A DNA stretch of 17,592 nt from positions 1 to 17,592 of the forward strand of contig JBBIMI010000017.1 in NCBI GenBank assembly GCA_037444485.1, in the 5' to 3' direction. This stretch comes from Candidatus Micrarchaeota archaeon (GTDB taxonomy: Archaea; Micrarchaeota; Micrarchaeia; Norongarragalinales; Norongarragalinaceae). Below are positions 1 to 17,337 of this stretch, in pieces; position 1 is the stretch's first letter, and each line of letters begins with the position of its first letter. The notes under the pieces were generated by a model. It was not told where the DNA came from. It made no database searches and saw only the letters and a program-made list of their open reading frames with translations. The translations under genes and the position numbers were made by a program.

Positions 1-245
1 ACGTGCACGTGGTCGCGCAGCTTCGCGCGGACGTGAGTCCTGCTCGTGCTGCCATGCTGTTGAAGGACGCGTCGGCGCGTGACTTGTTTCGTTTCAAGCC
101 AAAGTTTCGCCTGCGCTACCGGCGCGGCCACTTCTGGGGCCGCGCGTACTTCCACAAGAGCGCGGGCGACGCCGACTTGAAAACAGTCGCGCGTTACGTG
201 CGCGAGGATAACGACGCCCGCCAACGCAAGCTGGCAGCATGCTAG
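1..245 (+). CDS. tnpA: IS200/IS605-family Y1 (HUH) transposase TnpA, 5'-truncated by the window edge
   Basis: The window opens (c)AC GTG CAC, giving the H-V-H HUH motif if the missing base is C. It continues with SP...LK..SAR.LF, then HFWGRAYF (FW.xGYF-like) and a C-terminal helix carrying the candidate catalytic Tyr (TVARYV). Stop TAG at 243-245. Confidence 0.88.
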   Translation, partial: VHVVAQLRADVSPARAAMLLKDASARDLFRFKPKFRLRYRRGHFWGRAYFHKSAGDADLKTVARYVREDNDARQRKLAAC

Positions 246-278
246 AAATCCTACGCCTTCAGGCGTAGGTTATTTAAA
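245..278. mobile_element. Subterminal hairpin marking an IS200/IS605 element end
   Basis: Perfect stem CCTACGCC (250-257), loop TTCA, GGCGTAGG (262-269). It is preceded by GAAAT and followed by TTATTTAA, directly after the tnpA stop. This is the typical layout of IS200/IS605 ends. The exact cleavage point was not determined. Confidence 0.75.
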
Positions 279-289
279 TTGAATTAAAT

Positions 290-357
290 CATAAAAGTAA
301 AAAATTGTAGTAGAAAGTAAAATAAAATTGAAGTAAAGTGAAGTAAGAGTGGAAGTT
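290..357. repeat. Purine-rich low-complexity spacer built from AAGT/AAGTA units
   Basis: aaaagtaaaaaattgtagtagaaagtaaaataaaattgaagtaaagtgaagtaagagtggaagt. Confidence 0.5.
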
Positions 358-1323: not shown

Positions 1324-1331
1324 CAGCAATA

Positions 1332-3071
1332 TTATTTTTTTATTAGATAATTTCCTATGGCCAGCGCGTCCATTCCCGTAGTATATAAGCAGTTTATTGC
1401 TTCTTTTGGTTTACAAACCATTGGTTCTCCCTGAATGTTCATGCTTGTATTTAGCAGCACTGGAATTCCGGTATAGTCCTCGAACGATTTTATTAATTTA
1501 TAATAACGTGGATTCACTTTCTTTTCAACAGTTTGAGGACGAGCAGTTCCATCGATATGCGTCACTGCTGGAATCTCTTTCCGCTTTTCCGGTTTTACAT
1601 AAAATGATAAAATCATAAAAGGAGAGGGACGTGCGTCTTCTAGATACTCATCCGCAGCTTCAGCCAAGAGTGAAGGACACAAAGGCCGATAGTTTTCTCT
1701 ATGTTTTACCTTAAAGTTTATTATGTCTTTATTTTCAGCTTTTAACGGACTCATCAGAATTGAACGGTTTCCTAAAGCGCGTGGACCCCATTCCATGCGA
1801 CCTTGAAACCAGCCGACTATTTTTCCTTCAGACAATAGCTTGGCAGTTTCACCAGATATGTCATCGTAATAATCGTATCTTAAATTACACTCGTCAAGTA
1901 TCTTCTTAATTTCTTCGTTAGAAAATTCAGGTCCCCAATACGCGTTATCCATAACAAAATCATTTTTATAGCCTAGTTCGGCATAAGCTTGCAAAGCAGC
2001 ACCAAGAGAACACCCCGCATCGTTAGCGCAAGGTTGAATGAATAAATTTTTAACAAGACCGCTTCGCAGAATTCTCCCATTCATTACACAATTTAATGCT
2101 ACGCCACCTCCAAGCGCGAGGTTTATTTCTCCGCTCTTGTCAATAATTCTCTCAGTTAAGGCCACTGCAGCTTGTTCAAGTTTATACTGTAATGCAGCGG
2201 CTATGCTTTGATAACGCTTTTCAGTTTCCAGGAGAGATATTTTAGGACAAGGTGGGCCAAAAACATCCACCATTTTTTGGGAATACATCACGAAATTTGT
2301 TGGATAGTACTTTATTGGAATTTGAGATGGTGTTTTGCCACCACTGTGAAAATAAGAAGTATTCAAACTATAAGTTCCATCGGAATTTATTCTAAGAACA
2401 TCGTTCATTTTTTCTTCAAAGAGTTTAGGATCACCGTATGAAGTGAGACCCATTATCTTGCCTTCTCCGTCTCCAGCTACATAACCGAGGTATTCTGTAA
2501 AACCAGCATAAAAAGTTCCAAGCGAATTAGGCCAATTTATTCGTTCCAAAACTTTAATTTCTCTCTTTTTTTTACCTGTTGACAATAAGGTTGAAGTTAC
2601 TTCACCACGGTCATCCATAGTCAGTATAGCAGACGACTCAAATCCTGATGGATAATATGCGCTGGCAGCATGACAAATATGGTGTTCAAAATATTTTATT
2701 TGCGGGACTCGACCAAATCTTGAACGGAATTGTTTCTTTGGTTCTCCACGCACCGCATTAATCAATGTTTTGTAAAGGAAAATTGCTTGACTTACTGGCT
2801 TGCGCAAGAAAAATCCAGTTAGAATATGGTGAATATTGACGTTAATAAAATATTTCCATGGTGAAAAGTTGCTTAAAGCAATCAGTTCCACTTCATCGAT
2901 TCCAATTTTTGAGTGGTTAAGACAAAAATCTATCGCCTTAAATGGAAATTTAATTCCTGCAGAATGTTTAACACGATTAAATCGTTCTTCCTCTGCTGCC
3001 GCTATGAGTTTTCCATCTTTTAGAAGAGCGGCAGAACAGTCATGACCGAGATGAACACCTAAGATGTACAT
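1332..3071 (-). CDS. O-carbamoyltransferase, NodU/CmcH/TobZ family
   Basis: 579 aa. Motifs HDCSAALL, EEERFNRVKH, EHHICHAASAY, EGKIMGL, GGGVALNCVMN, QP.ANDAG, GPRALGNRS, KHRENYRP, HIDGTARPQTV and LNTSMN. A GGTGG Shine-Dalgarno-like site lies upstream of the ATG. Confidence 0.95.
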   Translation of the reverse strand: MYILGVHLGHDCSAALLKDGKLIAAAEEERFNRVKHSAGIKFPFKAIDFCLNHSKIGIDEVELIALSNFSPWKYFINVNIHHILTGFFLRKPVSQAIFLYKTLINAVRGEPKKQFRSRFGRVPQIKYFEHHICHAASAYYPSGFESSAILTMDDRGEVTSTLLSTGKKKREIKVLERINWPNSLGTFYAGFTEYLGYVAGDGEGKIMGLTSYGDPKLFEEKMNDVLRINSDGTYSLNTSYFHSGGKTPSQIPIKYYPTNFVMYSQKMVDVFGPPCPKISLLETEKRYQSIAAALQYKLEQAAVALTERIIDKSGEINLALGGGVALNCVMNGRILRSGLVKNLFIQPCANDAGCSLGAALQAYAELGYKNDFVMDNAYWGPEFSNEEIKKILDECNLRYDYYDDISGETAKLLSEGKIVGWFQGRMEWGPRALGNRSILMSPLKAENKDIINFKVKHRENYRPLCPSLLAEAADEYLEDARPSPFMILSFYVKPEKRKEIPAVTHIDGTARPQTVEKKVNPRYYKLIKSFEDYTGIPVLLNTSMNIQGEPMVCKPKEAINCLYTTGMDALAIGNYLIKK

Positions 3072-3109
3072 TCAATCCACCTATTAACCACGATTAGCTA
3101 AGTAATCAG

Positions 3110-3320
3110 TAAAAGCAATAATTTATTTTAGTAAATATTTAAAAATATTTAATAATGCGGTTGATAAATTTTAATAAGTAAAATAAGTAATAAATTATGT
3201 TAATAATTTTTAATAAGTAACGTAAATAAGTAATGATTAAAAAATTTAAATAATTTGAATAATTTGTATACTAAGTTATAAATTTATTATTTTTTTCTTT
3301 TTGTCTAATTTTCTTTTTTG
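3110..3320. repeat. Very AT-rich spacer with short direct repeats
   Basis: AAATATTTAA tandem pair at 3133-3152. ATAAGTAA occurs four times (about 3174, 3183, 3213, 3226). T-rich tract at 3286-3319. Confidence 0.55.
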
Positions 3321-3321
3321 C

Positions 3322-4047
3322 CTATTTCCTTTTGCTTTTTAATAATAGTATAAGCGCACCACCGAATACGTCAACGTCTAGACCCAAAAAATGCAATAAG
3401 CGCACCAGATAAAAGAGGATTTTTGAACTCTTGGTTGAAATAGGATTCCCCGCTTCGAAGAAATTTATTTTTCTTGCCTCGAGAACTTTAAACTGATTGC
3501 TACACAAGTTAAGAGCCGAATTAACAGTATATGCGTGTAGATGTCCTGATGGGTGCCCGGGACCAACAGGACTACTTTTTTTAAGCACTTGAAGTAACCG
3601 CGAATAAATTGTTTTTTCTATCGGAATTTTCAGCAAAACATAATCTGCACTATCAGCTATGCTTTCTAAAAATTTAGCATCATCTTGAATGTGTTCAACA
3701 ATATCGGAAAGTAGTATCAAATCCATTTTAGGTCCATTATATCTCGAAAAATCACCTTGAACAAATTTTATTTTAGGGTACCACTTTCTACCAACCACCA
3801 CAAACTTATGACTCAATTCAAAATTTATTGGGGGTTTTTTGAGTTTTGTGAGTCTAGCGAATTCATTAAGCAAAGTGCCTTCCGCACCGCCTATTTCGGC
3901 GCAAGTATAATTTTTTCGCGAAAAAGGATTATATTTTTCCCACATTTCATATAGTAGCCTAGCAGAAGTTTTCATTATTATTTCTCGATTTGGTTCTGAG
4001 AGCTGCGCGCGAGCCCATTCGTCATAAAATTTTTTATCAAAAGACAT
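3322..4047 (-). CDS. Class I SAM-dependent methyltransferase
   Basis: 241 aa. Motif I variant CAEIGGAEG, then FVQGDF, DLILLSDIVEHI.D, LLKIP and GHLHAYT, typical of glycan-locus methyltransferases. Confidence 0.85.
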   Translation of the reverse strand: MSFDKKFYDEWARAQLSEPNREIIMKTSARLLYEMWEKYNPFSRKNYTCAEIGGAEGTLLNEFARLTKLKKPPINFELSHKFVVVGRKWYPKIKFVQGDFSRYNGPKMDLILLSDIVEHIQDDAKFLESIADSADYVLLKIPIEKTIYSRLLQVLKKSSPVGPGHPSGHLHAYTVNSALNLCSNQFKVLEARKINFFEAGNPISTKSSKILFYLVRLLHFLGLDVDVFGGALILLLKSKRK

Positions 4048-4070
4048 ATCTTTTACCTGTAAACAAATTA

Positions 4071-5075
4071 TTACTTTGACAACAGTAATTCGTACAACTT
4101 AATGGTTTTTTTGGCTATCGTGTTTGAATCATGCATTTTTTTTGCGTATTTCTCGCCGTTTTCGCCCAATTTCTTTCTAAAGGCATTATCAGATATAAGT
4201 TCTCTCAAATTTTCTTTTAGAGAACTTACAGTCGAATTGCAGATTGGTAAATTAAACCCTTCAAAATATTTTTCTAGATCCTTCCTTACAAAGACACAAA
4301 CTGGTTTTTTTAGAATCATAGCTTCTACTGCTAGAATACCATACCAACCAACAATGAGTTGATCAATAACTATGTCTGCTTCTAAAAGATGCAGCAGCGT
4401 CGATTCGTGCGACTTTTTCTCAACCAAATCCAGTCGGATGCACAAACCTTCTTTTTTTAATTGATTTATTACATTTATGACAAAATCAGTTCCTTTAATT
4501 CGACGGCTCGTAGGCGCGTGCATCACAACTATTTCTTCATTTTCTTTATTTGATTTTTTCTTTACGGTATGTAATTTTGCGAAATTTTTTAGTTCTTTAA
4601 TATTTATTGGATTAGGAAGCCATTCCGAGCCAGAAACCACTTCCAATAAGTCAGGGGTAGAAACGTAATGAAAATTTCCTAATCTGGAAAAAAAAGGGGC
4701 CCCTTTTTTAACGATTTTTGTAGAACCTTCAAAAATTTTGAATGTTCGAACATCGCTGCCGTGGTGATGGTAAACAATTTTTTTACCTAATAATCGCAGC
4801 AGTGGTGCATCCAAGTAAAAGGGAAGAAAACTTGCCGAATGTAGGTGATAAATGTCGTAATCACGATATTTTGACAGCAATTCTTTTAACCTAAATAATG
4901 GTTGAAAAAAGCGAGGATACCTATCCACCATCATATTGAAATCGTATCCAAAACCTGATGGGTGACTCCGAAACACCACCACATCAGAATCGATGCCAAA
5001 TCGCCTCTGGGCGCGAGAGAGAGTATACGGAATGCCTGCGATATTATGCAAGTGAAGAACTCTCAAAAAGCGCAC
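4071..5075 (-). CDS. GT-B fold glycosyltransferase (GT4-like)
   Basis: 334 aa, GTG start with AGGAG upstream. Motifs YDIYHLH, HHHGSDVR, HAPTSRRIKGT, ADIVIDQL..GWYG..AVEAM..KKPV and LGENG..YA...HD. Confidence 0.88.
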   Translation of the reverse strand: MRFLRVLHLHNIAGIPYTLSRAQRRFGIDSDVVVFRSHPSGFGYDFNMMVDRYPRFFQPLFRLKELLSKYRDYDIYHLHSASFLPFYLDAPLLRLLGKKIVYHHHGSDVRTFKIFEGSTKIVKKGAPFFSRLGNFHYVSTPDLLEVVSGSEWLPNPINIKELKNFAKLHTVKKKSNKENEEIVVMHAPTSRRIKGTDFVINVINQLKKEGLCIRLDLVEKKSHESTLLHLLEADIVIDQLIVGWYGILAVEAMILKKPVCVFVRKDLEKYFEGFNLPICNSTVSSLKENLRELISDNAFRKKLGENGEKYAKKMHDSNTIAKKTIKLYELLLSK

Positions 5076-5102
5076 CTATTTATTACTCCTTGATATTATT
5101 TA

Positions 5103-5765
5103 TCATTTCTTGATTGCTTCAACGTAGAAAAACTTGCTGGTTTTCGCGAAAAAGCCTTTTTCACACAACCACGCCAGCAATGAAAACCAGCCTGGAATTC
5201 TGGCGAGAACGCGCGCTGGCAGAAAGTAAGAGAATTTCGGAAAAGGATTCCATCCCTTAATTTTATAGCGAAAGTAAGGCTTAAGCAGCGAATCGAGTTC
5301 TTCATAGCTTAATTTTACAGTCTTGTAGTAAGCGTTGTTGGGAGTCGTGAGAAACAAAACGCCGTTTTTCTTCAACACGCGCGCGACTTCGCGCATTACC
5401 TGCTCCTGATTCTTCCGCCTTGTTCTCTTGGGAGCAGGAAAATCAGCGTTTGGCACTACGTTAGCCATCACCACCACGTCGAACCAGTTCGATGGGAAAG
5501 GCAGGCGGTACATGCTGGCTTTTTTTATCACCGCGTTTGGATTGAGTCTCTTCACTTCGCGCACGGCTTTCTCGGCCGAGTCGACGCCGTACTTTTCGTT
5601 CGAGTTTTTCAACACCTTCAAGAGCAAACCTTTTCCGCAACCAACATCGAGTACTTTCTTGCCTTCAAGCACCGAGAGTTTGCGGGCTAAATAGTAGCGT
5701 ACGTCGAGTTTGTCACCCCAATCATTTTCTGCAAGCGTTTCTGCAAGCACACTGGTCTCGAACAA
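5103..5765 (-). CDS. Class I SAM-dependent methyltransferase
   Basis: 220 aa, TTG start with GGTG upstream. Motifs VLDVGCGKG, YGVD, LPF....FDVVV and EVARVLKKNGVLFLTTPN. Confidence 0.9.
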   Translation of the reverse strand: MFETSVLAETLAENDWGDKLDVRYYLARKLSVLEGKKVLDVGCGKGLLLKVLKNSNEKYGVDSAEKAVREVKRLNPNAVIKKASMYRLPFPSNWFDVVVMANVVPNADFPAPKRTRRKNQEQVMREVARVLKKNGVLFLTTPNNAYYKTVKLSYEELDSLLKPYFRYKIKGWNPFPKFSYFLPARVLARIPGWFSLLAWLCEKGFFAKTSKFFYVEAIKK

Positions 5766-5857
5766 TTTTATACACCAAGAAAAAGCGTTATGGCAATGCG
5801 AAATGAAATAGTTTAATATAATTGAATTAAAAACTTTCCCTGCCTAGAGGTATGGTT
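5766..5857. promoter_or_regulatory. Divergent promoter region with TATA-like AT tracts
   Basis: The spacer lies between divergent genes. It contains TTTAATATA at 5812-5820 preceded by a purine-rich GAAATGAAATAG, and an SD-like GAGGT at 5847-5851. Confidence 0.45.
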
Positions 5858-7318
5858 ATGGAGTTAAAAACGCTTGCACAAACCGAATGCGTTGAACGCG
5901 TAGAACGCGGTTTGTTCGTCAAGCACACGGCGTTGGTCCTCGCCGCGAATTTTGCGGGGTTAGTCGTAAGCTTTTTCCTCCGTCCGCTCGTTGCCCGCTT
6001 CACCGGCCCGAGCGAGTACGGAGTGTTCGCCTTGATTTTGAGCACGGCGGCAGTAATTCCGGCGCTTACGCTGCTGTCGATTAACGCGGGCGTGTTGTTT
6101 TTCACGGCGAAGAAACACGGGAATAAAAAGTTTGTTGAAAACATTTTTTCTACGAGCATCTATTTTACCGCGATTCTTTCAGTAATCTTTTTCGTTCCCC
6201 TATATTTTTTCTTTACCGTACTGGCGCCGGCGCTCGGCTTCAGCGGTTTCACCGCGGCGTATGTACTTGCGTTCGGGTTGTCCTTGTTCTCGATTCTTCA
6301 AGCGGGGCAACAGGGTTTAGAGCGGTTCAAGGCGTTCAGCGCAGTTAACGTCGCGTCCGTAATCGTCGCCAACGTGCTTGCTGTTGCAACAGCGTTTTTG
6401 CTGCATAGCGGCTTGTATGCGGCTTTCGCGCGCGCTGCTGGCGTTCTAGCTATTTCGTTAGTTGGAATAATTTCACTTAAGCTTTTCGGCGCGTTCGACA
6501 AAAAAATTTTGAGGCAATTGTTTGACTATTCGCTGCCTTTAGGGTTGGCTGGAATAATTAGCGCGTTCATCGCGGTTGTCGATAGGTACATCATCGCTGC
6601 TTTTTACAACACTGCTGAAGTCGGTTTTTACGACGTATCTTATTCCTTTGCCTTTGCAGTTCTACCGCTTTCTTCAGCTTTGCTTGTAACCATAGCGCCT
6701 AAAATCATTAAAAATGTTTCCAAGCTTGACGCATACTACAAGCGCGCTTCCGTCGTAAACGTCGTGCTGCTTTCCGGATTCGCCCTCGCGCTGTTCTATT
6801 ATTCGGACATCATAATTTTCTTGCTCGTCGGACGCGCTTACGTTGCGGGAGCCGTAATGCCGTTGAAAATTCTGGCGCTTGCGCTACCTTTTATGGCTAT
6901 TTATGGCTTGAACGGCTCGATATTTCCGTCAATCGACAAACCGCGTGTTGGCGCGTTTCTCAGCGTTTTGCTCGTTTTTGCAAGCATTTTCTTCAACTTC
7001 CTGCTAGTGCCGCGGTTGGGAAGCGTCGGCGCGGCTTGGGCTAACGTGCTTTCGTACCTCGTCATCGTCGCAATAGGACTAGCTTACTTGATAAAGAACT
7101 ACCGCGTGAGTTTGGGCAAGACGTTTGTTCAAATTGTTTTGTTCTTGTTTTTCGCGGTTTTTTACTTTTTGTTCGCCGAAAAGTTCGGCTTTACCGGCAA
7201 GACCGCTTTCTACGCGCTGTTCGCGCTGCTTACCATCACGCTTCAGCGCGAGGCGTTCGCCGAGGTACTCCACGAAATAATAGTCTTATTCAAGCTAAAG
7301 CTGCAAAGAACGCGCTAA
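5858..7318 (+). CDS. Wzx/MOP-superfamily oligosaccharide flippase (AglR-like)
   Basis: About 486 aa, multi-pass membrane protein. Motifs VARFTGPSEYG.FAL, LFDYSLPL, VDRYII....T.EVGFY and NFLLVPRLGSVGAAWA. The ATG at 5858 is preferred over 5852 because of spacing from GAGGT. Confidence 0.9.
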   Translation: MELKTLAQTECVERVERGLFVKHTALVLAANFAGLVVSFFLRPLVARFTGPSEYGVFALILSTAAVIPALTLLSINAGVLFFTAKKHGNKKFVENIFSTSIYFTAILSVIFFVPLYFFFTVLAPALGFSGFTAAYVLAFGLSLFSILQAGQQGLERFKAFSAVNVASVIVANVLAVATAFLLHSGLYAAFARAAGVLAISLVGIISLKLFGAFDKKILRQLFDYSLPLGLAGIISAFIAVVDRYIIAAFYNTAEVGFYDVSYSFAFAVLPLSSALLVTIAPKIIKNVSKLDAYYKRASVVNVVLLSGFALALFYYSDIIIFLLVGRAYVAGAVMPLKILALALPFMAIYGLNGSIFPSIDKPRVGAFLSVLLVFASIFFNFLLVPRLGSVGAAWANVLSYLVIVAIGLAYLIKNYRVSLGKTFVQIVLFLFFAVFYFLFAEKFGFTGKTAFYALFALLTITLQREAFAEVLHEIIVLFKLKLQRTR

Positions 7319-7357
7319 AAGCAGTTTTTTAATTTCAGCCGCGCTCTTACTTTAATC

Positions 7358-8530
7358 ATGAACGACTCAAAGCCGCGTTTCTTGATTCTCGGCGCGAAGG
7401 AATACCCGCTGGGCGCGGGCGCGGGAGAAGACGCTTACGCGTCAGGCGGAATGGAGGCGTACACGCAGCAACTCGCGCCCTTGCTCGCCGCGCGGGGCGC
7501 GCGCGTTATAGTGGTCACGCGCAAGTTCGCGCGGCAGCCAGCGCGTGAAACGCGTCAAGGCGTCGAGATTCGGAGAGTCGGCTGGTTGAAGGGTTTTCTT
7601 TGGCGCAACCCGTCATTCAACTTGAACGCGTTGCGTGAAACGCTTTTCATGCCGCGCGGCTCGTTCGACGCGATAATCGCGAACGGCGTTATTGCGACTC
7701 TCGTTGGTTTGAAGACGAAGTTTTTCAAAAAACTTTTCGGCGAGCGCGTTGCGGTAATTGCTCGTCCTGCTGGAATTGCTTGGGTTCAACCGCAATACAA
7801 TTTTTTGGTAAAAAGCGTTTTATTTTTCTTGGAGACGATCGCGTACAAGCTGGCTGACGCGGTCGTTTTTCTCTCGCCGCAGGAACGCGAGCAATTCGAA
7901 AAGAAAATGGGTTTCCTGCCCAAACGCGTCGCGCTGATTTCAACTGGCGTGAACACCGCGCGGTTCAAGCGCGCGACCGGCGAGCGCGCGCGCAAGCAAC
8001 TCGGCTTGCGTGGGAAAACAATTGTGTTCGTTGGGCGGTTGATTCAAGTTAAGGGACTCGAGTACTTGATTAAAGCACTGCCGCGTGTTCGCGGTAATGC
8101 GCAACTCGTGATTCTTGGTGACGGCCCGCTGCGCGCCGAACTTGAGCGACTCGCGCGCGAACTCGGCGTCGAGAAAAAAATTTTTTTCGTCAAGCGCGGC
8201 GACGTGGCGGAATTCCTTAAAGCAAGCGACGTTTTCGTTCTCCCGTCAGTCTCTGAAGGCTTGCCGATAGCGCTTCTTGAAGCAATGGCTGCGCGGCGAG
8301 CTTGTGTCGTGACTGACATAGGCTTGCCTGTGCGTGACGGAATTGACGCGCTTGTCGTGCCGCCCAAAAACTCGGACGCGCTCGCGCAAGCGTTAAATAA
8401 AGTGTTGGGCGACGCTGGGTTGCGCAGACGGCTGGGCAAGAACGCGCACGCTCGCGTGAAGAAAGAGTTTAATTGGAACAACGCAGTAAACGCTTACTTG
8501 AAGCTTGCAGGCGAACTAACGCGCGGTTAA
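7358..8530 (+). CDS. GT4-family glycosyltransferase
   Basis: 390 aa. Motifs GGME.Y, FVGRL...KG..YLIKA, GDGP.R and the EX7E motif in DVFVLPSVSEGLPIALLEAMA. A TATA-like TTTTAATT lies about 25-30 nt upstream of the ATG, so the transcript may be leaderless. Confidence 0.93.
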   Translation: MNDSKPRFLILGAKEYPLGAGAGEDAYASGGMEAYTQQLAPLLAARGARVIVVTRKFARQPARETRQGVEIRRVGWLKGFLWRNPSFNLNALRETLFMPRGSFDAIIANGVIATLVGLKTKFFKKLFGERVAVIARPAGIAWVQPQYNFLVKSVLFFLETIAYKLADAVVFLSPQEREQFEKKMGFLPKRVALISTGVNTARFKRATGERARKQLGLRGKTIVFVGRLIQVKGLEYLIKALPRVRGNAQLVILGDGPLRAELERLARELGVEKKIFFVKRGDVAEFLKASDVFVLPSVSEGLPIALLEAMAARRACVVTDIGLPVRDGIDALVVPPKNSDALAQALNKVLGDAGLRRRLGKNAHARVKKEFNWNNAVNAYLKLAGELTRG

Positions 8531-8540
8531 CGTAGTCGCA

Positions 8541-8643
8541 CAACTTTCTTTATAATTAACAACTTTCTTTATAATTAATTAATTCGTAATTCATTTTAAT
8601 TAATTCATAATTCGTTAGGGCGGGATTCGTTAGGGCAGGGATT
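8541..8643. repeat. Three adjacent short duplications filling the intergenic spacer
   Basis: CAACTTTCTTTATAATTAA x2 (8541-8559, 8560-8578). TTAATTAATTC(G/A)TAATTC x2 (8575-8592, 8596-8613). ATTCGTTAGGGC(A)GGG x2 (8610-8624, 8625-8640). Confidence 0.85.
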
Positions 8644-8646
8644 TTC

Positions 8647-10578
8647 GTGTGTGGAATAATTGGTTTTACTGGGCTTGACGACGAGCTTGCGGCAAAACGC
8701 ATGAATGCGAGCGTCAAGCACCGCGGGCCGGACATGGACGGGTTTTACTTTGACGAGAACGCCGCGTTAGGTAACCGGCGGTTGAAGATAATAGATTTGA
8801 GTGAAGCCGCACGCCAACCAATGCACAACGAAGACGAAACTGTTTGGGTTACTTTCAACGGCGAGGTTTACAACCACCGCGCGCTGCGCGCGGAACTCGA
8901 GTTGAAAAACCATCGTTTTTCTTCTCGCGCCGACACGGAAGTTCTCGTTCACGGTTTTGAAGAGTGGGGAAACGCGTTGCCAACTCGCTTGCGCGGCGAT
9001 TTCGCTTTCGCTGTTTGGGATTCTCGCAAGAAAAAGCTTTTCCTGGCGCGCGACAACATCGGCGTTTGCCCGCTTTACTACGCGTTTTACGAAGCAGGTG
9101 GAAGAAACCAAATAGCTTTCGCTTCAGAAATCAAGGCTTTATTGATGCACCCACTCGTGAAACGCGGAATCGACTTTCAAGCATTAAACGAATACCTCTC
9201 GCTTCGTTACTCGCTTGGTCCGCGCACCTTATTCGCTGGCGTGCGCAAGCTTCAGCCGGGGCATTTTCTCGAGTTTGATGCTGTGAGTGGGGAAACGCGC
9301 GTGCAAAAGTATTGGGATTTCGTTTTCGCGCCAGCACGCGAGTCTGAAGCTTTTTTTGTGGAAAAGATTCGTTTGTTGTTGGGCGAGTCCGTCAAACTGC
9401 GTTTAATGAGTGACGTTCCGCTTGGAGCGTACTTGAGTGGCGGGCTTGACTCGAGTTTTATAGTCGCGTTGATGGCGCGGGCTGCTCGCGAGGCTGGTGG
9501 CGCAAGCGATTCTATTAAAACTTTTTCTGTCGCGTTCGGCCAGCCTACTGACGAAACGCGTTTCGCGCGGCTTGTTGCTGAACAATACTCTACTAACCAC
9601 AAGGAACTCTTCGTGGATGACGCGCGTGTTGTTCAAGCCCTTCCGCTCGTCGCATGGCATTTGGATGAGCCTGTCGCGGACGCTGCCGCGATTCCAACTT
9701 TTTTCATGGCGCAAGCTGTCAAGCCGCATGCGACTGTAGTGCTTACGGGCGACGGGGGTGATGAAGTGTTCGGCGGTTACGCGCGTTACTATCGTCTTCC
9801 GCGCTTGCACCGCTTTGGGCCGCTCGCCCGCAAAATGCGGTACTTCGCGTTCGTAACGCGTTTGCTTCAAACGCGTGAAGCTTCAAAACGCTTGAAGGAA
9901 TTGCTTGCGAGTTCACGCGACCGTGTGGAATTGTTTCTCGCTTACGCGTCCGCTTTTTCTGAACAAGAAAAAAAAGAGTTTTTAACGCTTGAATTCATGC
10001 GCGAACTACGCGTTTTTCCAACCATCATTGATGAAATAAAACCATTTTTTGAAACTGGTTTGAATTACGCTGACGAGTTGTTTTATTTTGACTTGAAGAC
10101 GCTGCTTCCAGACGATTACTTGATGAAAGTCAACAAAACAAGTATGGCGCACTCAGTAGAATCCCGCGTTCCATACCTCGACAACGAATTCGTTGCGTTT
10201 GCCGCAACGATTCCCCACGACTTGAAGATTGAAGGCTCGCGAACGAAGAAAATCATGCGGAAAGCTATGCAAGGCCTGGTGCCGGACGAGGTAGTAAAAC
10301 GCGGAAAGTGGGGTTTCAACGTGCCCACGCACGCGTGGCTCGACGGCGAGCTCGGCGAAATCGCTGCTCAACTGCTTTCCAGCGACGCGGTGCGCAAGCG
10401 CGGTTATTTCGAAAACCGTTTAGTGCAAAGCATCTTACGGAATTACTCGAAGAACGAATCGTATTACTCTCGCCAATTTTGGGCTTTGTTCGCGCTCGAA
10501 TTATGGCACCGCGTGTTCATAGACCCGCCTGAAGAAACAGCGTTACGCGCGCCAAAGAGTTTCAACGAATTACTTTAA
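8647..10578 (+). CDS. asnB: Asparagine-synthase-like glutamine amidotransferase (AsnB family), likely glycan amidation
   Basis: 643 aa. N-terminal Ntn nucleophile MCGI, then HRGPD, RRLKIIDL, FNGEVYN, ARD.IG..PLYY, LSGGLDSS, LTGDGGDEVFGGY and SVESRVPYLD. It sits between glycosylation genes. Confidence 0.93.
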   Translation: MCGIIGFTGLDDELAAKRMNASVKHRGPDMDGFYFDENAALGNRRLKIIDLSEAARQPMHNEDETVWVTFNGEVYNHRALRAELELKNHRFSSRADTEVLVHGFEEWGNALPTRLRGDFAFAVWDSRKKKLFLARDNIGVCPLYYAFYEAGGRNQIAFASEIKALLMHPLVKRGIDFQALNEYLSLRYSLGPRTLFAGVRKLQPGHFLEFDAVSGETRVQKYWDFVFAPARESEAFFVEKIRLLLGESVKLRLMSDVPLGAYLSGGLDSSFIVALMARAAREAGGASDSIKTFSVAFGQPTDETRFARLVAEQYSTNHKELFVDDARVVQALPLVAWHLDEPVADAAAIPTFFMAQAVKPHATVVLTGDGGDEVFGGYARYYRLPRLHRFGPLARKMRYFAFVTRLLQTREASKRLKELLASSRDRVELFLAYASAFSEQEKKEFLTLEFMRELRVFPTIIDEIKPFFETGLNYADELFYFDLKTLLPDDYLMKVNKTSMAHSVESRVPYLDNEFVAFAATIPHDLKIEGSRTKKIMRKAMQGLVPDEVVKRGKWGFNVPTHAWLDGELGEIAAQLLSSDAVRKRGYFENRLVQSILRNYSKNESYYSRQFWALFALELWHRVFIDPPEETALRAPKSFNELL

Positions 10579-11040
10579 CAAGTAAACGAAACTAAGCAAA
10601 TACTATCAAAAGAAACTAAACGGTATTAAAAACGGTATTAAACAAATTACTGAAGAATTAGTGTAAAGAATTGGTAACGAATACTAGAATACTATTAACG
10701 CGTTAAACGAATTGTTCAAGTTAAGTTTAAATGTTATTAAACGGTATTAAACGAATTGGAATTTTAAATGAATTGTTTAAGTTGTTCGAATTGTTTTTTG
10801 AGTTGTTTAAAGTTGTTTTAAGCGCGTTCGTTTAAGCGCGTTCGAGGTGGTGAAAAACCAAAGGGTTTTTATTAAAAGGCGTTCTTTTTATTGAAGATTG
10901 TTTTTATTGAATTTGTTTTTTATTGGGTTTTTATTAGAGAAATTATTTTTTATTGAAGATTGTTTCCTTGATTGTTTTTTCTTTTCTTTTCTTTCTTTGT
11001 TTTTTTATTTTGTTTTCTTTGTTTTCTGTTGTTGGGCGTC
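10579..11040. repeat. Long AT-rich intergenic region composed of short direct repeats
   Basis: AAACGGTATTAA x3 (10618, 10630, 10739). GAATACTA x2 (10679-10694). TTTAAGCGCGTTCG x2 (10817-10844). TTTTTATT(G/A) about six times (10866-10955), including TTTTTATTGAAGATTGTTT x2. Confidence 0.75.
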
Positions 11041-11106
11041 AAACTTGCATTTAAGCCTTTTTAGTGAATTGAAGACCGTGTTTTCGCGCGGTGGGGGTTT
11101 TTAGGG

Positions 11107-14031
11107 TTGTTCGTCGAGCTTTTCGCAATCGTTGCGACCGGCGTGTTTTTGTTCACGCCCGGCATCCTCTGGTCTTTCGCTCTCCTCAAGAACGTGAGCC
11201 TGCGCTTGTGGGAAAAAACTTTTTTAGGCGTAGTGCTCGGACTAATAATCGTACCTGGCGCGAGCGTTCTTGAATTCGTTTTCTTGGAAGTAAAACTCAA
11301 TGCTTTGCTTGTTCTCACTAACGCTGTCCTGCTCTCGTTAATCGCGGTTGTAGTGCTTTGGAAACAAAAACAGTCACTCGAGTTCTGGAAGACAGCGTTC
11401 GAATTGCCGAAGTCGAGCGCGGGTTGGAAAGCTTGGTTGAAGGAAAACTGGCCCGCGTTGGCAGTCATCGTTGTTACGGTATTCGGTTTTTACGCGCGTT
11501 TCGCGACTTCTTGGGCGACGAATTTCTTCGAGTTCGACCCGATTTACTACGACAAGTTGACTGAACGCCTCGTGCAAAACGGTTTTATCGAGGTTTTCAC
11601 GCAGGACGCTTACTACCCGCTGCAAGCGTTCCAGCGTTACGCTCCAATGATTCACTACTTGAGTGGTTCACTTTACTTGCTTTACCAGTCTTTCGCAGGC
11701 GGACCGTTTTCGAAAGACGCACTCATGCTCACCGGCCAATTGTATCCGCCGATCGTAGGCGCGTTGTTGTCGTTCCTCGCTTTCCTCGTCGTAAAGGAAG
11801 AATACAACAAGTACGTTGCTTTAATTCCTACTCTGCTTTTCGCTTTCACTCCCCAACTCGTAAAAAAACTTGCTGCAGGCGTTAACGAACAACAGCCTTG
11901 GGGTATTTTCGCCGCGTTATTGGTTTTCGCGTTGTTCGCGCTTGCGGTGAGCAAGAAAAGCAGGCGGCTTGCAGTGTTCGCTGGAATAGCTGTTTTCGCG
12001 GCTGTTCTCGGCAGCCAGCAATACATTTGGCCCGTGACCGTAGTCGCCGCGTTCATCGGCATCCAGGCGCTCCTCGATTTCTTGAAGAACGACTTGGATG
12101 AACGACTTTTGGTCGTGAACGGGATTGTTGTTGCAAGCGCGATTGCTGCCGGCATCCTTTTATGGGTTTACCAACAGGGTGCTTACGGGTCGTTCTTCAG
12201 CGGCGCTTCAATGCTGTTGATTGCTTCATTCGCGTTTTCAGCACTATTGTATGGTTTGACTAGGTTCATGAAAATAAATTCGTTTAAAGAGAGAGTTGGT
12301 TGGCTTGCGGGAGTCCTTATAATAGTAATCGTAATCGTGTCAGTAACGCCCTTGTTGAGCACGCTGCTCGGCTACTTGACTAGAACTTCCCAATTCGCTG
12401 TAGCCGGCTGCGGGCTCGGAAAAACGATTCAAGAAGAGGGTGGCACTTCGCCCGCGTTGTTTCAATCAGCTTACGGCGTTCTAAACCCGCCGGTCTTGTT
12501 GTTGTTCGCTGCAGTGCTTTCCAGCATTACCGCGATTCTCGCGTTGCTGCGCAAGAAAAAACGCGATTACGCGATTGTCGGCGCAGTGATCGTGTTCGGC
12601 TTGATTGTCTTCAACGCGCAAATAGATGGTTTCCTGTCTTGGATCGCGAGTAGCGTCGGCTCTGCGGACTTGACTAACGCGATTAAATTCTTTTCTGAAA
12701 ACGATGTTTTCCTTTACATGCTTATAGCGCTCGGCTCTACTTCAGTAACGTACTTGGCGGCCGAAAGCAGTAAAGCGAGAAAATCAGCTTTACTGTTCGT
12801 GCTCGTATTCTTCCCAATCGCTTACGTCGGGTTAAACAAGCTAAAATACATGCTGCACTTGGCTTTCGCGCTAGCGCTTGCTGCCGGCTACGTTCTCGGC
12901 GAACTCGCGCGCGCACTCGAAGAAGCAAACGAGTGGCTGCACTTCGCGAAAAACAAGGCCGCCTTCTCGCGCTGGGTGGTTGGAAGCGTTCTCGCAATCG
13001 GGTTACTGTTTTCAGCGCTTCAAGCGCAAACCGTTCCGCAGAGCGTGAAGGAATTGAGTTACACGCGCATTCCAAGCGACTGGATGCAAGCGTACGAGTG
13101 GATGCGCGTCAACTTGCCGAAAGACGCGCGCGTAATGTCTTGGTGGGATTACGGACATTGGACTACTTTCTTCGGCGAACGCAATACGGTGCTCGACCCG
13201 AACAACGCGCACGCGAACTTCGACCAAGCAGTTGCGCAAGCGTTCGTGAACGGCGAACCGAAAGACTTGTATTACTTGATGAATTACCACAATGCGACTC
13301 ACGTTCTCGTAGACGCTGACCTCGTGTCCAAGTGGGGCGCACTTGTTTTCTTAAGCTGTTCGTGTGACGCGAGCTTGTCGCCAGTGTGCCCGCAAAAGTG
13401 GGAGAGCGACCCCTGCATCGCGCCCGGGCAAAGCAAGTGCGAAGCAGAACACTACGACGAGTACCTCGACGTTATCGGAGAGTGCCCGCCTGCGCTCACG
13501 CCAGTCGCGTTGCCAGCGTTGGCAAGCAGTTTCGGTGTTACTTACTGCGCTGGACAAAACGAGTTGTTTCTCGCGACTCGCCAAGGCCTAGACCCAACGT
13601 ACAAACGCAAGTACAAGATAATTGGAGCTAGCGAGGTTGACGTCAACAACTTGGATCCATCAGTTAGTTACTTGATTCCAATCGCTCAAAACAAGTTTAT
13701 TAACGTCAACCCGTACTTGCCTGGCTTCAACAACCGCGTGTTTTACTCCGCGTTCACGCGCTTGTTCTTCTTTGAAACGTATCCAGGCTTCAAACTCGTC
13801 TACAAGTCGCCGAACGGCATGGTAAAGATTTTCGAGTACCTCGGCGAACCGCCTGAAAGCGAGTGGATCAAATACCAAGCGCCCGCGAACGTCGAAGCGC
13901 TTCAGCCGACGCCGACTCCAACGCCAAGCGCAACGCCGACTGCTACGCCGAGCGTCAGTCCGACGCCTTCGCCCGAAGCGGCGCAAAACGCGACGAACGC
14001 GACCAACCAAACGAACGCTTCAACCAGTTAA
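11107..14031 (+). CDS. aglB: Oligosaccharyltransferase AglB (STT3 family)
   Basis: 974 aa multi-TM protein with EFDP (E142-D144), TIQE (440-443), SWWDYGHW (W679), a DK-like DADLVSKW and a C-terminal VKIFEY. TTG start with GGTGGGGG upstream. Confidence 0.95.
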   Translation: MFVELFAIVATGVFLFTPGILWSFALLKNVSLRLWEKTFLGVVLGLIIVPGASVLEFVFLEVKLNALLVLTNAVLLSLIAVVVLWKQKQSLEFWKTAFELPKSSAGWKAWLKENWPALAVIVVTVFGFYARFATSWATNFFEFDPIYYDKLTERLVQNGFIEVFTQDAYYPLQAFQRYAPMIHYLSGSLYLLYQSFAGGPFSKDALMLTGQLYPPIVGALLSFLAFLVVKEEYNKYVALIPTLLFAFTPQLVKKLAAGVNEQQPWGIFAALLVFALFALAVSKKSRRLAVFAGIAVFAAVLGSQQYIWPVTVVAAFIGIQALLDFLKNDLDERLLVVNGIVVASAIAAGILLWVYQQGAYGSFFSGASMLLIASFAFSALLYGLTRFMKINSFKERVGWLAGVLIIVIVIVSVTPLLSTLLGYLTRTSQFAVAGCGLGKTIQEEGGTSPALFQSAYGVLNPPVLLLFAAVLSSITAILALLRKKKRDYAIVGAVIVFGLIVFNAQIDGFLSWIASSVGSADLTNAIKFFSENDVFLYMLIALGSTSVTYLAAESSKARKSALLFVLVFFPIAYVGLNKLKYMLHLAFALALAAGYVLGELARALEEANEWLHFAKNKAAFSRWVVGSVLAIGLLFSALQAQTVPQSVKELSYTRIPSDWMQAYEWMRVNLPKDARVMSWWDYGHWTTFFGERNTVLDPNNAHANFDQAVAQAFVNGEPKDLYYLMNYHNATHVLVDADLVSKWGALVFLSCSCDASLSPVCPQKWESDPCIAPGQSKCEAEHYDEYLDVIGECPPALTPVALPALASSFGVTYCAGQNELFLATRQGLDPTYKRKYKIIGASEVDVNNLDPSVSYLIPIAQNKFINVNPYLPGFNNRVFYSAFTRLFFFETYPGFKLVYKSPNGMVKIFEYLGEPPESEWIKYQAPANVEALQPTPTPTPSATPTATPSVSPTPSPEAAQNATNATNQTNASTS

Positions 14032-14052
14032 TTGATTATAAGTGTGAACAAA

Positions 14053-15051
14053 ATGGGCTTGCCTTTCGCGCTGGGACTCGCCGCAGTCGCTTTCGCCATC
14101 ACTTTCGCTGCAACTCCGTTTTACGCGAAGCGCGCGCTAGCGAAAGGAATTTTTGGCCGCGACGTCAACAAAGCCGGCCGCCCGCGCGTGGCTGAAATGG
14201 GTGGACTCGTGGTTTTCGCTGGCGTGGCATCAAGCGTGTCACTCGGAATCCTTTTCCTCACGTTCATAGACGCGAACTTCGCGTTGCTCACGTTGCTTCT
14301 CGCGGCTCTCGCCGCGCTTTCGCTGACCGCATTAATAGGCGTTTTCGACGATTTATTTAAACTAACGTGGAAAACGAAGGCGTTAATGCCGCTTGCTGCC
14401 GCCTTGCCGTTGGTTGCAGTGAAAGCAGGGGAAACAGTGATGAGCATTCCGTTCGTTGGCGACGTGGACTTCGGCTTGTTTTACACTTTCATTCTCGCTC
14501 CGTTAGGCGTTACTGGCGCTGCTAACGCGTTCAACATGAGCGCGGGCTATAACGGACTCGAGGCGGGAATCGGCTTCATTGTTTCCGCCGCGTTGCTTGC
14601 AATCGCGGTAGCGAGCGGAAGCACCGCTGCAGTCGTAGTGCTCGCCGCGTTGGCTGGCGCTTGCTTAGCGTTCTTGAAATTTAATTGGTTTCCAGCGCGC
14701 GTGTTTCCAGGCGATGTTGGCACGCTCATCGTCGGCGTTGGCATTGCGAGCGCTGCAATAATCGGCAACCTCGAAAAGTTCGCAGTTATCCTCGTGATTC
14801 CAGCTTTTTATGAACTCGCTGCAACTGTTTATTACGCTGCGAAAGCCGTTTGGCGCAGGCCAGCGTGCCACAATCCAGTGATTTTGGAGGATGGGCGGCT
14901 TAAGCCGCCGAAAGGCGCGGAATACTATACGTTGTTTTACTTGATTCTCTCAAAGAAACCCTTGCGCGAGGCGGACCTCGTTAAAACGGTTTACGCGATT
15001 TACGCCGCGTTCGCCGCAATCGCGCTTGCAGTGTATTGGCTCCGCGTTTAA
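14053..15051 (+). CDS. aglH: UDP-GlcNAc:dolichyl-phosphate GlcNAc-1-phosphotransferase (AglH/DPAGT1/Alg7 type)
   Basis: Motifs GRDVNK, VAEMGG, GVFDDL, NAFNMSAGYNGLEAG and FNWFPARVFPGDVGT. The ATG at 14053 is preferred over the TTG at 14032. Confidence 0.88.
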   Translation: MGLPFALGLAAVAFAITFAATPFYAKRALAKGIFGRDVNKAGRPRVAEMGGLVVFAGVASSVSLGILFLTFIDANFALLTLLLAALAALSLTALIGVFDDLFKLTWKTKALMPLAAALPLVAVKAGETVMSIPFVGDVDFGLFYTFILAPLGVTGAANAFNMSAGYNGLEAGIGFIVSAALLAIAVASGSTAAVVVLAALAGACLAFLKFNWFPARVFPGDVGTLIVGVGIASAAIIGNLEKFAVILVIPAFYELAATVYYAAKAVWRRPACHNPVILEDGRLKPPKGAEYYTLFYLILSKKPLREADLVKTVYAIYAAFAAIALAVYWLRV

Positions 15052-15074
15052 TCGCTGATCGCTTAATCAGCGTT

Positions 15075-15947
15075 TCAGCGTTTATTCAAGTCCTTAACCG
15101 CTTCGCCAGCCGGCTTGTGGTTTACGAACACGCCAGCGCCAAGCTCGATTCCACCCCACACGTTCAACAAACGCGGATACACTTCAACGTGGAAATGGAA
15201 ATTCCGCACGCTGCGCGGCGCGCTGTGAAAAACGACTGTGTAATCAGGCGAAGCGCGCGCAACGCGCTTCGTCACTTCCCGCAGCAAACGCATGAACGCG
15301 AGCGCCTCGCTCCCCGAAAAATCGAGGATGCTGCGCGCATGCCGCTCGGGCGCAATCCAACACTCGAGAGGAAAACGCGCGAACGACGGCGTAAACGCAG
15401 CGAAACCCTTCTCGCGCGCGAAAACGTGCGCGCGTTCCTTCACGAGAATAGAGTGCAACGCGCTCTCGCCGCTTGCCTTGAAGCCGCGCGCGAAAGCTTC
15501 AACCTCTGACGCTATGAACTCGGGAACAAAATCTAGTCCAATGATTTGCGCGTGTTCGTGTGAAACACTCGCTCCGCTCGCGGCGCCGTGGTTGCGAAAC
15601 AAAAACACGCTTTCGCTGGCTTGCTGCAATTCACGGTAACGGTTTCTGTAAGCTTCGAAAACGAATGCGAGTTGTTCGTCACTAAAATTCTGGAATAACT
15701 CGTCATGGTCGAGTGTTTCAACTATTACCTCGTGGTTTTGTGTGATAGGAAAAGCGTTTTTGAAGCAACGCACGCGCCAATTTTCTTTCGATGGGAGCGC
15801 GAACGTCGTTGGAGGAGTGAGCTTCTCGCGGCCAGGACAAAAAAAGCATTCCCTCTTGTTTTTGACGAGCGGCCTCTTGCCCCTGCGTGCGAGCATAAAC
15901 GTCTTAAAGCCAGTCAAAGGATTGAAAGCCAGTTCACGCGAACCCAT
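15075..15947 (-). CDS. galT: Galactose-1-phosphate uridylyltransferase (GalT/HIT-superfamily) homolog
   Basis: Motifs NPLTG, RGKRP, CFFCPG, N.FP, HEVIVET, FRNHG..SGAS..HEHAQI and HFHVE..PR...WGG.ELG.G..VN. The ATG at 15947 has GGGTGA upstream. Confidence 0.85.
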   Translation of the reverse strand: MGSRELAFNPLTGFKTFMLARRGKRPLVKNKRECFFCPGREKLTPPTTFALPSKENWRVRCFKNAFPITQNHEVIVETLDHDELFQNFSDEQLAFVFEAYRNRYRELQQASESVFLFRNHGAASGASVSHEHAQIIGLDFVPEFIASEVEAFARGFKASGESALHSILVKERAHVFAREKGFAAFTPSFARFPLECWIAPERHARSILDFSGSEALAFMRLLREVTKRVARASPDYTVVFHSAPRSVRNFHFHVEVYPRLLNVWGGIELGAGVFVNHKPAGEAVKDLNKR

Positions 15948-15974
15948 TAAAAAACACTCACCCGCACTCAATTA

Positions 15975-16066
15975 AAACACTTTCAATTTAAAACAAAATA
16001 AAACAATAAAAAAATTAAAAAAAAACAAATTAAAAAAAAACAAATTAAAACAACGAATTCATTAAA
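15975..16066. repeat. A-rich tandem repeat spacer
   Basis: ATTAAAAAAAAACAA x2 (16014-16043) plus a shortened third copy ATTAAAACAA. Confidence 0.7.
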
Positions 16067-16067
16067 A

Positions 16068-16084
16068 CGAAACTGCTTTAAGAA
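16068..16084 (+). promoter_or_regulatory. Archaeal BRE/TATA promoter of the SRP RNA gene
   Basis: CGAAAC followed by TTTAAGAA (16077-16084), centred about 25 nt upstream of the predicted RNA 5' end. Confidence 0.6.
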
Positions 16085-16104
16085 CGTTTTTCCAAATACT
16101 TTAC

Positions 16105-16375
16105 TGCGGTGGGCTGGTCGGGAGGCTAGAGGTCTCCTGTAACGCCAATCCTCTTTACGGCGGACAAAGGCTTTGGATAAAGCGCGCGAACGCTCGCGCG
16201 GCCTGACGCCGGCAGACGAAGCGTTGCCTCGCGTTATGCTTCGAGTGGCGAACCGAGCCAGGTCGGAAGAAGCAACTCTAAACCATTCAAAGCATGCTCG
16301 CGAGATACAATGCGGATGCTTGGCTTCAGACAACCCGCGGCGCGAACACGCTTGAACCAAAGCACGCTCACCGCA
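16105..16375 (+). ncRNA. ffs: Signal recognition particle (7S) RNA
   Basis: Helix 1: TGCGGTGGGC (16105-16114) pairs with GCTCACCGCA (16366-16375). Alu domain: helix 3 GGAGGC/GTCTCC, the UGUAA motif, helix 4 CGCC/GGCG, and loop-loop complementarity AGAGG/CCTCT. Long helix 5 is closed by GCTTTGG/CCAAAGC. Helix 8 reads GAACC-GAG-CCAGG-TC-GGAA-GA-AGCAA-CTC. Confidence 0.93.
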
Positions 16376-16479
16376 CTCGCTAAAAAAAATTCCAGAAAAC
16401 AATGCCATCCTGCTTTTCAGGTTGCAGGTTTGCATACCGCGAGGCTTACACGATTCAAACTGTCGTTGAGTGTTACAGA

Positions 16480-17337
16480 ATGGCTTCACTAAACGCGGGG
16501 CCAGAGTATTACGCGGCCGAAGGCCGTTACCGAGAAGCGAAAACCATTGAAGACAAGCTTGCAGCGCTTGAAGAAATGCTGCGCTACTGTCCAAAACATA
16601 AAGCCGCTCACTCCATCCTCATGGAAATCAAGAACAAAATCGCGCGCTTGAAGAAAGAACAACAACTCGAAGCCCGCAAGGCAGCGCAACGCAAGGCAGG
16701 CGGGCCGCGCGAGTTCGTAAAACGCGCTGGTGCAGCTCAAGTCGTGTTACTAGGATTCGCGAATTCAGGCAAGAGTTTTCTCTTAAACGCGCTTAGTGAC
16801 GGACGCGCGCGAGCGGCTTCAACTGAAAAGCCTTTCGAAACAATTGAAGTCACTCCTGGAATGATGGAGTTCGAGAAAATCCAGATTCAAATCCTCGACA
16901 CGCCGAGCGCAACTAACCAAAACCGCGCGCGGTTATTCGCGCTCGCCCGCAACGCCGACTTGACGCTTATTCTAATCGACCCCGCGCAAGACGAGAACCC
17001 CCAAAAATTTTTTTTTGACGCAGCGCCGGGAAGAAAAATATTCTTGAAACGCGGGGAAACGCTGAACGTTGACGCGTTAAAGAAAAAAATTTTTGACGAA
17101 CTCGGCGTGATACGCATTTTCACTAAAAACCCGCGCGGAGAAACTGATTATGAGCGTCCCATCGCCCTCGCGCGCGGGCGGAACACGGTTGCAGACGCTG
17201 CTCGCGAGATTCACAAGCAACTAGCTGAAGGCTTGAAGTATGCGCGCGTGTGGGGTTCAACGAAATTTCCGGGCCAGCAGGTCAGCGGCGATTACGAACT
17301 GCGGGACGGCGACGTCGTCGAACTCCACTTGAAATAA
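16480..17337 (+). CDS. DRG/Obg-like GTP-binding protein with C-terminal TGS domain (archaeal type)
   Basis: N-terminal PEY..AE..Y..A.T.E.K..ALEEML...PKHK helix region, G1 GFANSGKS, G2 PFET, G3 DTPS, and TGS-domain IRIFTK...TVADAA.EIH...LKYARVWG.....Q.V..DY.L.DGDVVELH. The ATG at 16480 matches the family N-terminus better than the one at 16402. Confidence 0.88.
   Translation: MASLNAGPEYYAAEGRYREAKTIEDKLAALEEMLRYCPKHKAAHSILMEIKNKIARLKKEQQLEARKAAQRKAGGPREFVKRAGAAQVVLLGFANSGKSFLLNALSDGRARAASTEKPFETIEVTPGMMEFEKIQIQILDTPSATNQNRARLFALARNADLTLILIDPAQDENPQKFFFDAAPGRKIFLKRGETLNVDALKKKIFDELGVIRIFTKNPRGETDYERPIALARGRNTVADAAREIHKQLAEGLKYARVWGSTKFPGQQVSGDYELRDGDVVELHLK

Follow-up and report, generated by a model that had tools for sequence, protein, structure and literature searches.

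The signal recognition particle (SRP) of Micrarchaeota very probably has two components, SRP RNA and SRP54, with FtsY as the receptor, in a Bacillus-type layout without the clamp of SRP19 and helix 6. That clamp is known from canonical archaea, where SRP19 holds the tetraloops of both helix 6 and helix 8. By computation, we identified in the genome of a Candidatus Micrarchaeota archaeon an SRP RNA gene, its fold and the lack of helix 6 in that fold, found SRP54 and FtsY, and did not detect srp19. The SRP RNA gene lies on the plus strand at positions 16105-16375 of the 17,592-nt stretch of contig JBBIMI010000017.1 that was analysed (the window). The genome has 961,727 bases in 58 contigs; it is not closed, but is 95.07% complete and 0.2% contaminated.

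A scan of the whole window at the Rfam gathering thresholds returned a single match, Bacteria_large_SRP (RF01854), at 16109-16367 on the plus strand (69.4 bits, cut-off 60), which spanned model positions 1-256. When E-value thresholds were used on positions 16000-16480, the best family was Archaea_SRP (RF01857). It matched 16107-16373 end to end (model positions 1-317) with 91.9 bits and an E-value of 1.8e-21, below its gathering cut-off of 96.5. With 69.4 bits against 91.9 bits for the segment 16105-16375, RF01854 was not the best family of the SRP clan. A genome-wide search gave 16107-16373 as the sole SRP RNA match of the whole genome, again with RF01857. The segment 16105-16375 is a real SRP RNA gene. 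As only RF01854 passes its cut-off, routine annotation would call this SRP RNA bacterial. In the phylum, the cut-off of RF01857 was passed in just 27 of the 150 genomes sampled. The initial annotation, which was made from the sequence alone, had read the segment as an archaeal SRP RNA with the architecture of the bacterial large type. The matches to both families confirmed that it is an SRP RNA. In the comparison of the two Rfam models which that annotation had suggested, the archaeal model scored higher and the bacterial large model alone exceeded its cut-off, the latter in agreement with the layout proposed.

The gene measures about 267-271 nt, and all of its parts are given here on the plus strand. 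Helix 1 pairs 16105-16114 with 16366-16375, according to the Rfam structure line and our reading of the sequence. Its two outer pairs, 16105/16375 (T-A) and 16106/16374 (G-C), lie beyond the Rfam match and were read from the sequence. They are a plausible extension of helix 1, which puts the predicted ends at 16105 and 16375. The Alu 5′ domain (16116-16167) aligned to both RF01857 and RF01854 with high posterior probability. It comprises helix 2, the hairpin of helix 3 (16120-16138), the UGUAA motif at 16138-16142, which agrees with the UGUNR pattern, and the hairpin of helix 4 (16143-16162). The pairs of helices 3 and 4 covary in the RNAalifold consensus of 60 relatives. On the opposite strand, an open frame of 203 aa (15983-16594, minus strand) crosses the whole SRP RNA gene and enters the start of the next gene. 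It had no Pfam match at E ≤ 1. This antisense frame is most likely spurious, though gene-calling software could list it.

An A/T box (CTTTAAGA) at 16076-16083 on the plus strand, some 26 nt before the predicted 5′ end, is a likely archaeal TATA promoter element. At the loci of relatives, an A/T run of at least 7 nt started between -42 and -24 in 55 of 60 cases. Comparatively, the control window from -92 to -74 had such a run in 17 of 60. The A/T content at these loci peaked at 87% between -30 and -26. The box agrees with a TATA promoter of archaeal type and with transcription of the gene as a unit of its own, a putative function suggested by its sequence and position. In the window, no oligo-T terminator was found after the SRP RNA gene, and the next gene begins 27 nt downstream of it. 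Between the upstream minus-strand gene and the promoter box there is a very A-rich spacer (15960-16075) with runs such as AAAACAAAATAAAACAATAAAAAAATTAAAAAAAAAC. A match to CrcZ in this spacer was only at chance level (E = 0.58). The window also codes for an archaeal STT3/AglB oligosaccharyltransferase, glycosyltransferases and a DRG-like GTPase. Positions 1-15100 constitute a cell-surface glycosylation cluster, with a carbamoyltransferase, methyltransferases, GT4 glycosyltransferases, a polysaccharide flippase-like protein, asparagine synthase, AglB/STT3 and a GT4-family (PF00953) transferase. A stretch of low GC content (31-38%) occurs at 2-5 kb of the window, which elsewhere has about 50%.

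The S domain of this RNA is an unbranched rod. Distal helix 5 has its 5′ strand at 16221-16241 and its 3′ strand at 16290-16313, as supported by the sequence, the consensus fold and covariation. In the sequence, GCGTTG (16221-16226) pairs with CAATGC (16308-16313), CTCGCG (16228-16233) with CGCGAG (16299-16304), and ATGCTT (16236-16241) with AAGCAT (16290-16295). The next stem, GAGTGG (16243-16248) with CCATTC (16283-16288), already belongs to helix 8. ATGCTT and GAGTGG are set apart by one C (16242). This single junction nucleotide is at the point where helix 6, of about 40 nt, branches off in canonical archaeal SRP RNA. The four stem pairs had been drawn by hand as one rod in the initial annotation, with one nucleotide between ATGCTT and GAGTGG, and all of them are indeed present. 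The RF01857 alignment contained one local skip, in which the 40 model positions of helix 6 stood against 0 nt. The skip was located between the 5′ strand of distal helix 5 (...GCUUCG) and the 5′ strand of helix 8 (AGUGGC...). Neither this alignment nor our reading of the junction revealed a helix 6 with a GNAR tetraloop 5′ of helix 8 in 16105-16375, and no helix 6 hairpin was found at 16225-16250, the interval in which the initial annotation had considered that one might be placed.

We surveyed the relatives for the same RNA. SRP RNA matches were found in 44 of 61 genomes of the family and order and in 131 of 150 genomes of the phylum sample, with a union of 160; an unpublished genome (G129) was counted in these tallies only. 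Under stricter filters, the own family had a match in only 10 of 25 genomes. Genome G226 (Methanosphaera) and genome G227 (Norongarragalinales) had no SRP RNA match. Nearly all matches of relatives were 258-275 nt long. Sixty of these sequences were aligned with MAFFT (alignment A1). In the RNAalifold consensus of A1, helix 5 continues straight into helix 8 without a branch. The S-domain structure of 30 pairs had standard pairs in 91.2% of 1,800 cells, compared with 35.8-50.9% in controls slid by 1-3 columns. Changes on both sides were observed in 28 of the 30 pairs. In helices 1-3 of the counted structure, which correspond to distal helix 5, 85-96% of the cells were paired and every pair changed on both sides. 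The covariation score was 0.727, that of slid partners was at most 0.183, and none of 500 shuffles reached the observed values. The slid controls are the stronger test because the shuffles ignore relatedness. The covariation check among relatives, which had been proposed along with the rod, supports it.

The length of the junction was counted by region after the 20 longest matches (288-332 nt), 18 matches of middle or odd length and two canonical controls had been joined to A1 with MAFFT --add. It was 0-2 nt in 98 out of 98 Micrarchaeota SRP RNAs, from 98 genomes, and 41 nt in both Methanobacteriota controls, although MAFFT alignments may force anchors in such counts. The two controls (L144 and L145, from the phylum of Methanosphaera) were 316 and 317 nt long and scored 263.8 and 246.6 bits. 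The matches of the other 62 of the 160 matched genomes, which were outside the junction alignment, measured 258-272 nt. Helix 6 is absent, and helix 5 and helix 8 form one continuous rod. The claim that helix 6 is missing was thereby upheld by the 40-position skip, the unbranched consensus, the covariation and the junction counts.

The surplus length of the longer copies was outside the junction, on the 3′ side of helix 8, in the apical loop of helix 8, or in the part of the Alu domain and helix 5. We inspected the Rfam alignments of 10 of the 20 long copies. Seven skipped the helix 6 positions outright and one had nearly all of them deleted. In the alignment of L074, the helix 8 sequence itself was drawn into the helix 6 positions, with many non-standard pairs. 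In that of L075, 38 nt stood against the skipped segments of helices 6 and 8, and the region count places these nucleotides 3′ of helix 8.

Some additions to the RNA were observed in other families. In four genomes of one family (L049, L065, L070 and L073), a hairpin of 27-30 nt lay where helix 8 leads into the 3′ strand of helix 5; at about 25 other loci (L074-L086 and L147-L159), 11-35 additional nucleotides followed helix 8 on its 3′ side. The hairpins varied in their loops (AUUC, UUGC, GUAA and others) with no conserved GNAR, and the site of these additions differs from the position of helix 6. These additions could bind a protein. In three genomes, the 4-nt GGAA tetraloop of helix 8 was replaced by insertions of 49, 49 and 63 nt (L071 in G219, L072 in G169 and L089 in G027). 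The minimum free energy folds of the insertions in these three genomes had no clean bulge-helix-bulge motif. The insertions could be an intron or a real expansion.

Helix 8, the SRP54-binding helix, occupies 16243-16288, as indicated by the sequence, the RF01857 alignment and its invariant columns. It has an asymmetric loop (GAAC / UAAA), a symmetric loop formed by CAGG (16259-16262) and AGCA (16271-16274), a 2-bp apical stem and a GGAA tetraloop at 16265-16268. Both loops and the tetraloop were invariant or nearly so among the 60 relatives, and a pattern search found the apex motif CAGGNCGGAAGNAGCA in 53 of the 60. The pair closing the symmetric loop, 16258/16275 (columns 167/187 of alignment A1), was C.A in 38 and U.G in 22 of the 60 sequences, and nothing else. 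The two combinations are isosteric wobble pairs, and their alternation is a case of covariation. The window carries C.A at this site, and the archaeal consensus of Rfam c-g. Of the 60 Micrarchaeota sequences, 58 had an apical stem of 2 bp (16263-16270 in the window), compared with 3 bp in the archaeal consensus of Rfam. The two Methanobacteriota controls had 2 more nucleotides in this stem, which is consistent with 3 bp. The shorter stem may reflect release from the tetraloop clamp.

The initial annotation had also proposed to search the genome for srp19, srp54 and ftsY; two of these three genes were found. A frame of 438 aa on contig 1 encodes SRP54, with an M domain (SRP_SPB) of 93 bits and a GTPase domain of 205 bits. 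Another frame of 438 aa, on contig 3, encodes FtsY (226 bits). In comparison with PDB sequences, this SRP54 scored 310-358 bits with archaeal SRP54 structures and about 240-245 bits with bacterial Ffh and eukaryotic SRP54. The archaeal/eukaryotic and bacterial equivalogs of NCBIfam gave 323 and 359 bits, both below their cut-offs. When public genomes were scanned with this SRP54, 23 loci were obtained, comprising 22 records of the Micrarchaeota lineage and one Methanosphaera MAG (41%). The nearest SRP54s were from Candidatus Norongarragalinales archaeon (79% identity), Candidatus Micrarchaeota archaeon (75-77%) and Anstonellaceae (50-55%). These matches assign the genome to the phylum Micrarchaeota among the DPANN archaea. 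The archaeal nature of the RNA, which had been claimed at the outset, thus finds support in the scores of 91.9 against 69.4 bits, the archaeal-type SRP54, the A/T box near -26, AglB/STT3 in the window, and nearest named relatives that are Micrarchaeota.

A search of this genome, which is 95% complete, for SRP19 (PF01922) gave no match even with the threshold relaxed to E ≤ 10. Among 61 relatives, no genome had PF01922 above the cut-off, and the best sub-threshold hit was 17 bits inside a frame of 1,159 aa. Nor did PF01922 exceed the cut-off in any of 121 genomes sampled from the class or any of 151 sampled from the phylum, 133 of which were of high quality. These sample counts are not independent, since the samples overlap and the genomes are related. 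The Pfam search has a weakness of its own: among four archaeal control genomes, it missed Sulfolobus acidocaldarius. We therefore used two further controls, a phylum of methanogens and an HMM of our own. In the phylum of Methanosphaera, the same search found PF01922 above the cut-off in 61 of 61 genomes. The HMM was built from 31 control SRP19s, which come from a single phylum. Run unfiltered over the 8,774 stop-to-stop frames of at least 50 aa in the own genome, it gave a best E-value of 1.2 (8.8 bits). All of these SRP19 searches are sequence-based, and srp19 appears to be missing down to the limits of detection by sequence. The suggestion of the initial annotation that this SRP may work without SRP19 is supported.

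As there is no helix 6 and no detectable SRP19 in the phylum, the particle is most likely composed of two components. Its RNA lacks helix 6 and retains helices 1 and 8, a long helix 5 and the Alu domain with its UGUAA motif. The M domain of SRP54 would bind helix 8 directly, as bacterial Ffh does, with FtsY as the receptor, and the Alu domain would have been kept to contact the ribosome. In other archaea, SRP54 has been described to bind SRP RNA without SRP19, also in vitro (PMC2905702; PMC6098224), and deletion of SRP19 in Haloferax volcanii is reported in the same sources to leave translocation unaffected. The RNA keeps the parts used by SRP54 and the ribosome, and archaeal SRP54 can bind without SRP19; thus, the two-component SRP is the best supported reading. 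It presumes that SRP54 binds the Micrarchaeota RNA unaided, that the RNA is probably expressed with the predicted ends, and that the present state would have arisen by loss.

This direction of change could be the reverse. It is rather unlikely, in our estimation, that the state without helix 6 and SRP19 is ancestral in archaea and not reduced. Micrarchaeota, together with Woesearchaeota and Parvarchaeales according to published marker lists, would then keep the original archaeal layout of helix 1, Alu domain, helix 5 and helix 8, which is shared with Bacillus-type bacteria, and the clamp of helix 6 and SRP19 would have arisen later, on the branch leading to other archaea and eukaryotes.

It is quite improbable that the genome does encode SRP19, or a protein that takes its place, in a form so divergent that sequence searches miss it, and that this protein binds helix 8 and another part of the RNA so that three components remain. 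The failure of the Pfam search on Sulfolobus acidocaldarius, one of four archaeal controls, speaks for such a protein, as do the fast evolution of DPANN proteins and the extra hairpin beside helix 8 in some families. However, a count of 0 in 151 genomes from many families, against 61 of 61 in the controls, and the unfiltered HMM that found nothing in any frame would be hard to reconcile with it. Its known platform, the GNAR loop of helix 6, is gone. The RNA of the window does not have the extra hairpin, and where the hairpin occurs its loops are not conserved.

Considering that RF01854 alone passes its gathering score (69.4 against 60) and describes the same architecture, a bacterial large SRP RNA of the Bacillus type might have been acquired by horizontal transfer, or the contig might be bacterial, the latter being an alternative named in the initial annotation. 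We regard both as highly improbable. The archaeal model scored 22 bits higher despite the gap of 40 positions, and the same RNA occurs throughout the phylum. The flanks carry archaeal AglB/STT3, the A/T box is of archaeal type, and the SRP54 of the genome is archaeal as well, with Micrarchaeota as its relatives. That the gene is decayed, misassembled or a deletion artefact of a metagenome-assembled genome is barely credible, although the assembly has 58 contigs and the score is under the Rfam archaeal cut-off. The same junction was found in 98 of 98 genomes of the phylum, compensatory changes keep the rod paired, and the gene has invariant motifs in helix 8 and a conserved promoter box.

The Micrarchaeota RNA resembles the canonical archaeal SRP RNA (RF01857) in helix 1, the Alu domain with UGUNR, the long helix 5, and a helix 8 with the GGAA tetraloop and the CAGG/AGCA symmetric loop, as well as in its partners SRP54 and FtsY. 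Canonical examples are the controls L144 and L145 here, and Methanocaldococcus jannaschii and Archaeoglobus fulgidus in print. It differs from them in having 0 nt instead of 41 nt at the site of helix 6, no detected SRP19, a length of about 267 nt instead of 316-317 nt, an apical stem of 2 bp instead of 3, and a score below the gathering cut-off. With the bacterial large SRP RNA (RF01854, the scRNA type of Bacillus subtilis), it shares a terminal stem, the Alu domain, helix 5, helix 8 and the lack of helix 6. Unlike that RNA, it has an archaeal host, a better fit to the archaeal model and an archaeal-type SRP54 as partner. The Bacillus SRP uses Ffh and HBsu. A stem like helix 1 has been predicted in B. 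subtilis (PMC4238359).

An archaeal SRP without SRP19 also exists in the Haloferax volcanii deletion strain (Yurist et al. 2007, as cited in PMC6098224 and PMC2905702). That strain is a laboratory deletion in which helix 6 is kept, whereas in nature the whole phylum Micrarchaeota lacks the RNA arm as well as the protein of the clamp. In other DPANN lineages, absence of the SRP19 gene has been recorded: PF01922 is among the universally missing markers of 152 Woesearchaeota genomes (PMC8421398) and of Jingweiarchaeales/Parvarchaeales (PMC10134863). These accounts cover other phyla or orders than the present case, and, in the parts of them that bear on the markers, they correct completeness only, do not consider SRP RNA and offer no biological interpretation. 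The circularly permuted SRP RNA of Thermoproteus (Plagens et al. 2015, PMC4731332) is similarly described as non-canonical and missed by standard searches. Its gene is permuted and its mature RNA has the GNAR loop of helix 6 and SRP19; the Micrarchaeota RNA, in contrast, has the normal order and has no helix 6.

According to the standard review of the archaeal SRP (2010), every archaeal subgroup has SRP19 genes, SRP19 and helix 6 go together, and the adenosine clamp of helices 6 and 8 is probably present in all archaeal SRP RNAs (PMC2905702); the taxon table of that review includes no DPANN entry. Our literature search of main texts turned up no account of an archaeal SRP RNA that lacks helix 6. 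The supplements of DPANN papers may record the absence of SRP19 for Micrarchaeota. The dispensability of SRP19 and its gene-level absence in other DPANN groups are already known. The initial annotation had cautioned that novelty would depend on lineage and on earlier reports; the feature proved to be lineage-wide, and the absence of SRP19 is in print as a missing marker for other DPANN groups.

These results have practical implications for annotation. Rfam thresholds call the SRP RNA of Micrarchaeota bacterial or miss it, and SRP19, a marker of completeness, is systematically absent from genomes of this kind. For the biology of the particle, both halves of the clamp were undetectable in every sampled Micrarchaeota genome, which breaks a textbook generalisation for a whole phylum. 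This gives natural support to the laboratory result that SRP19 is dispensable in archaea, and offers a minimal archaeal SRP, composed of RNA and SRP54, for structural and biochemical work. Whether the clamp is ancestral can be asked by mapping its presence, as a character, on the archaeal tree. If the state without the clamp were the ancestral one, the Micrarchaeota particle would be a living model of the SRP before SRP19.
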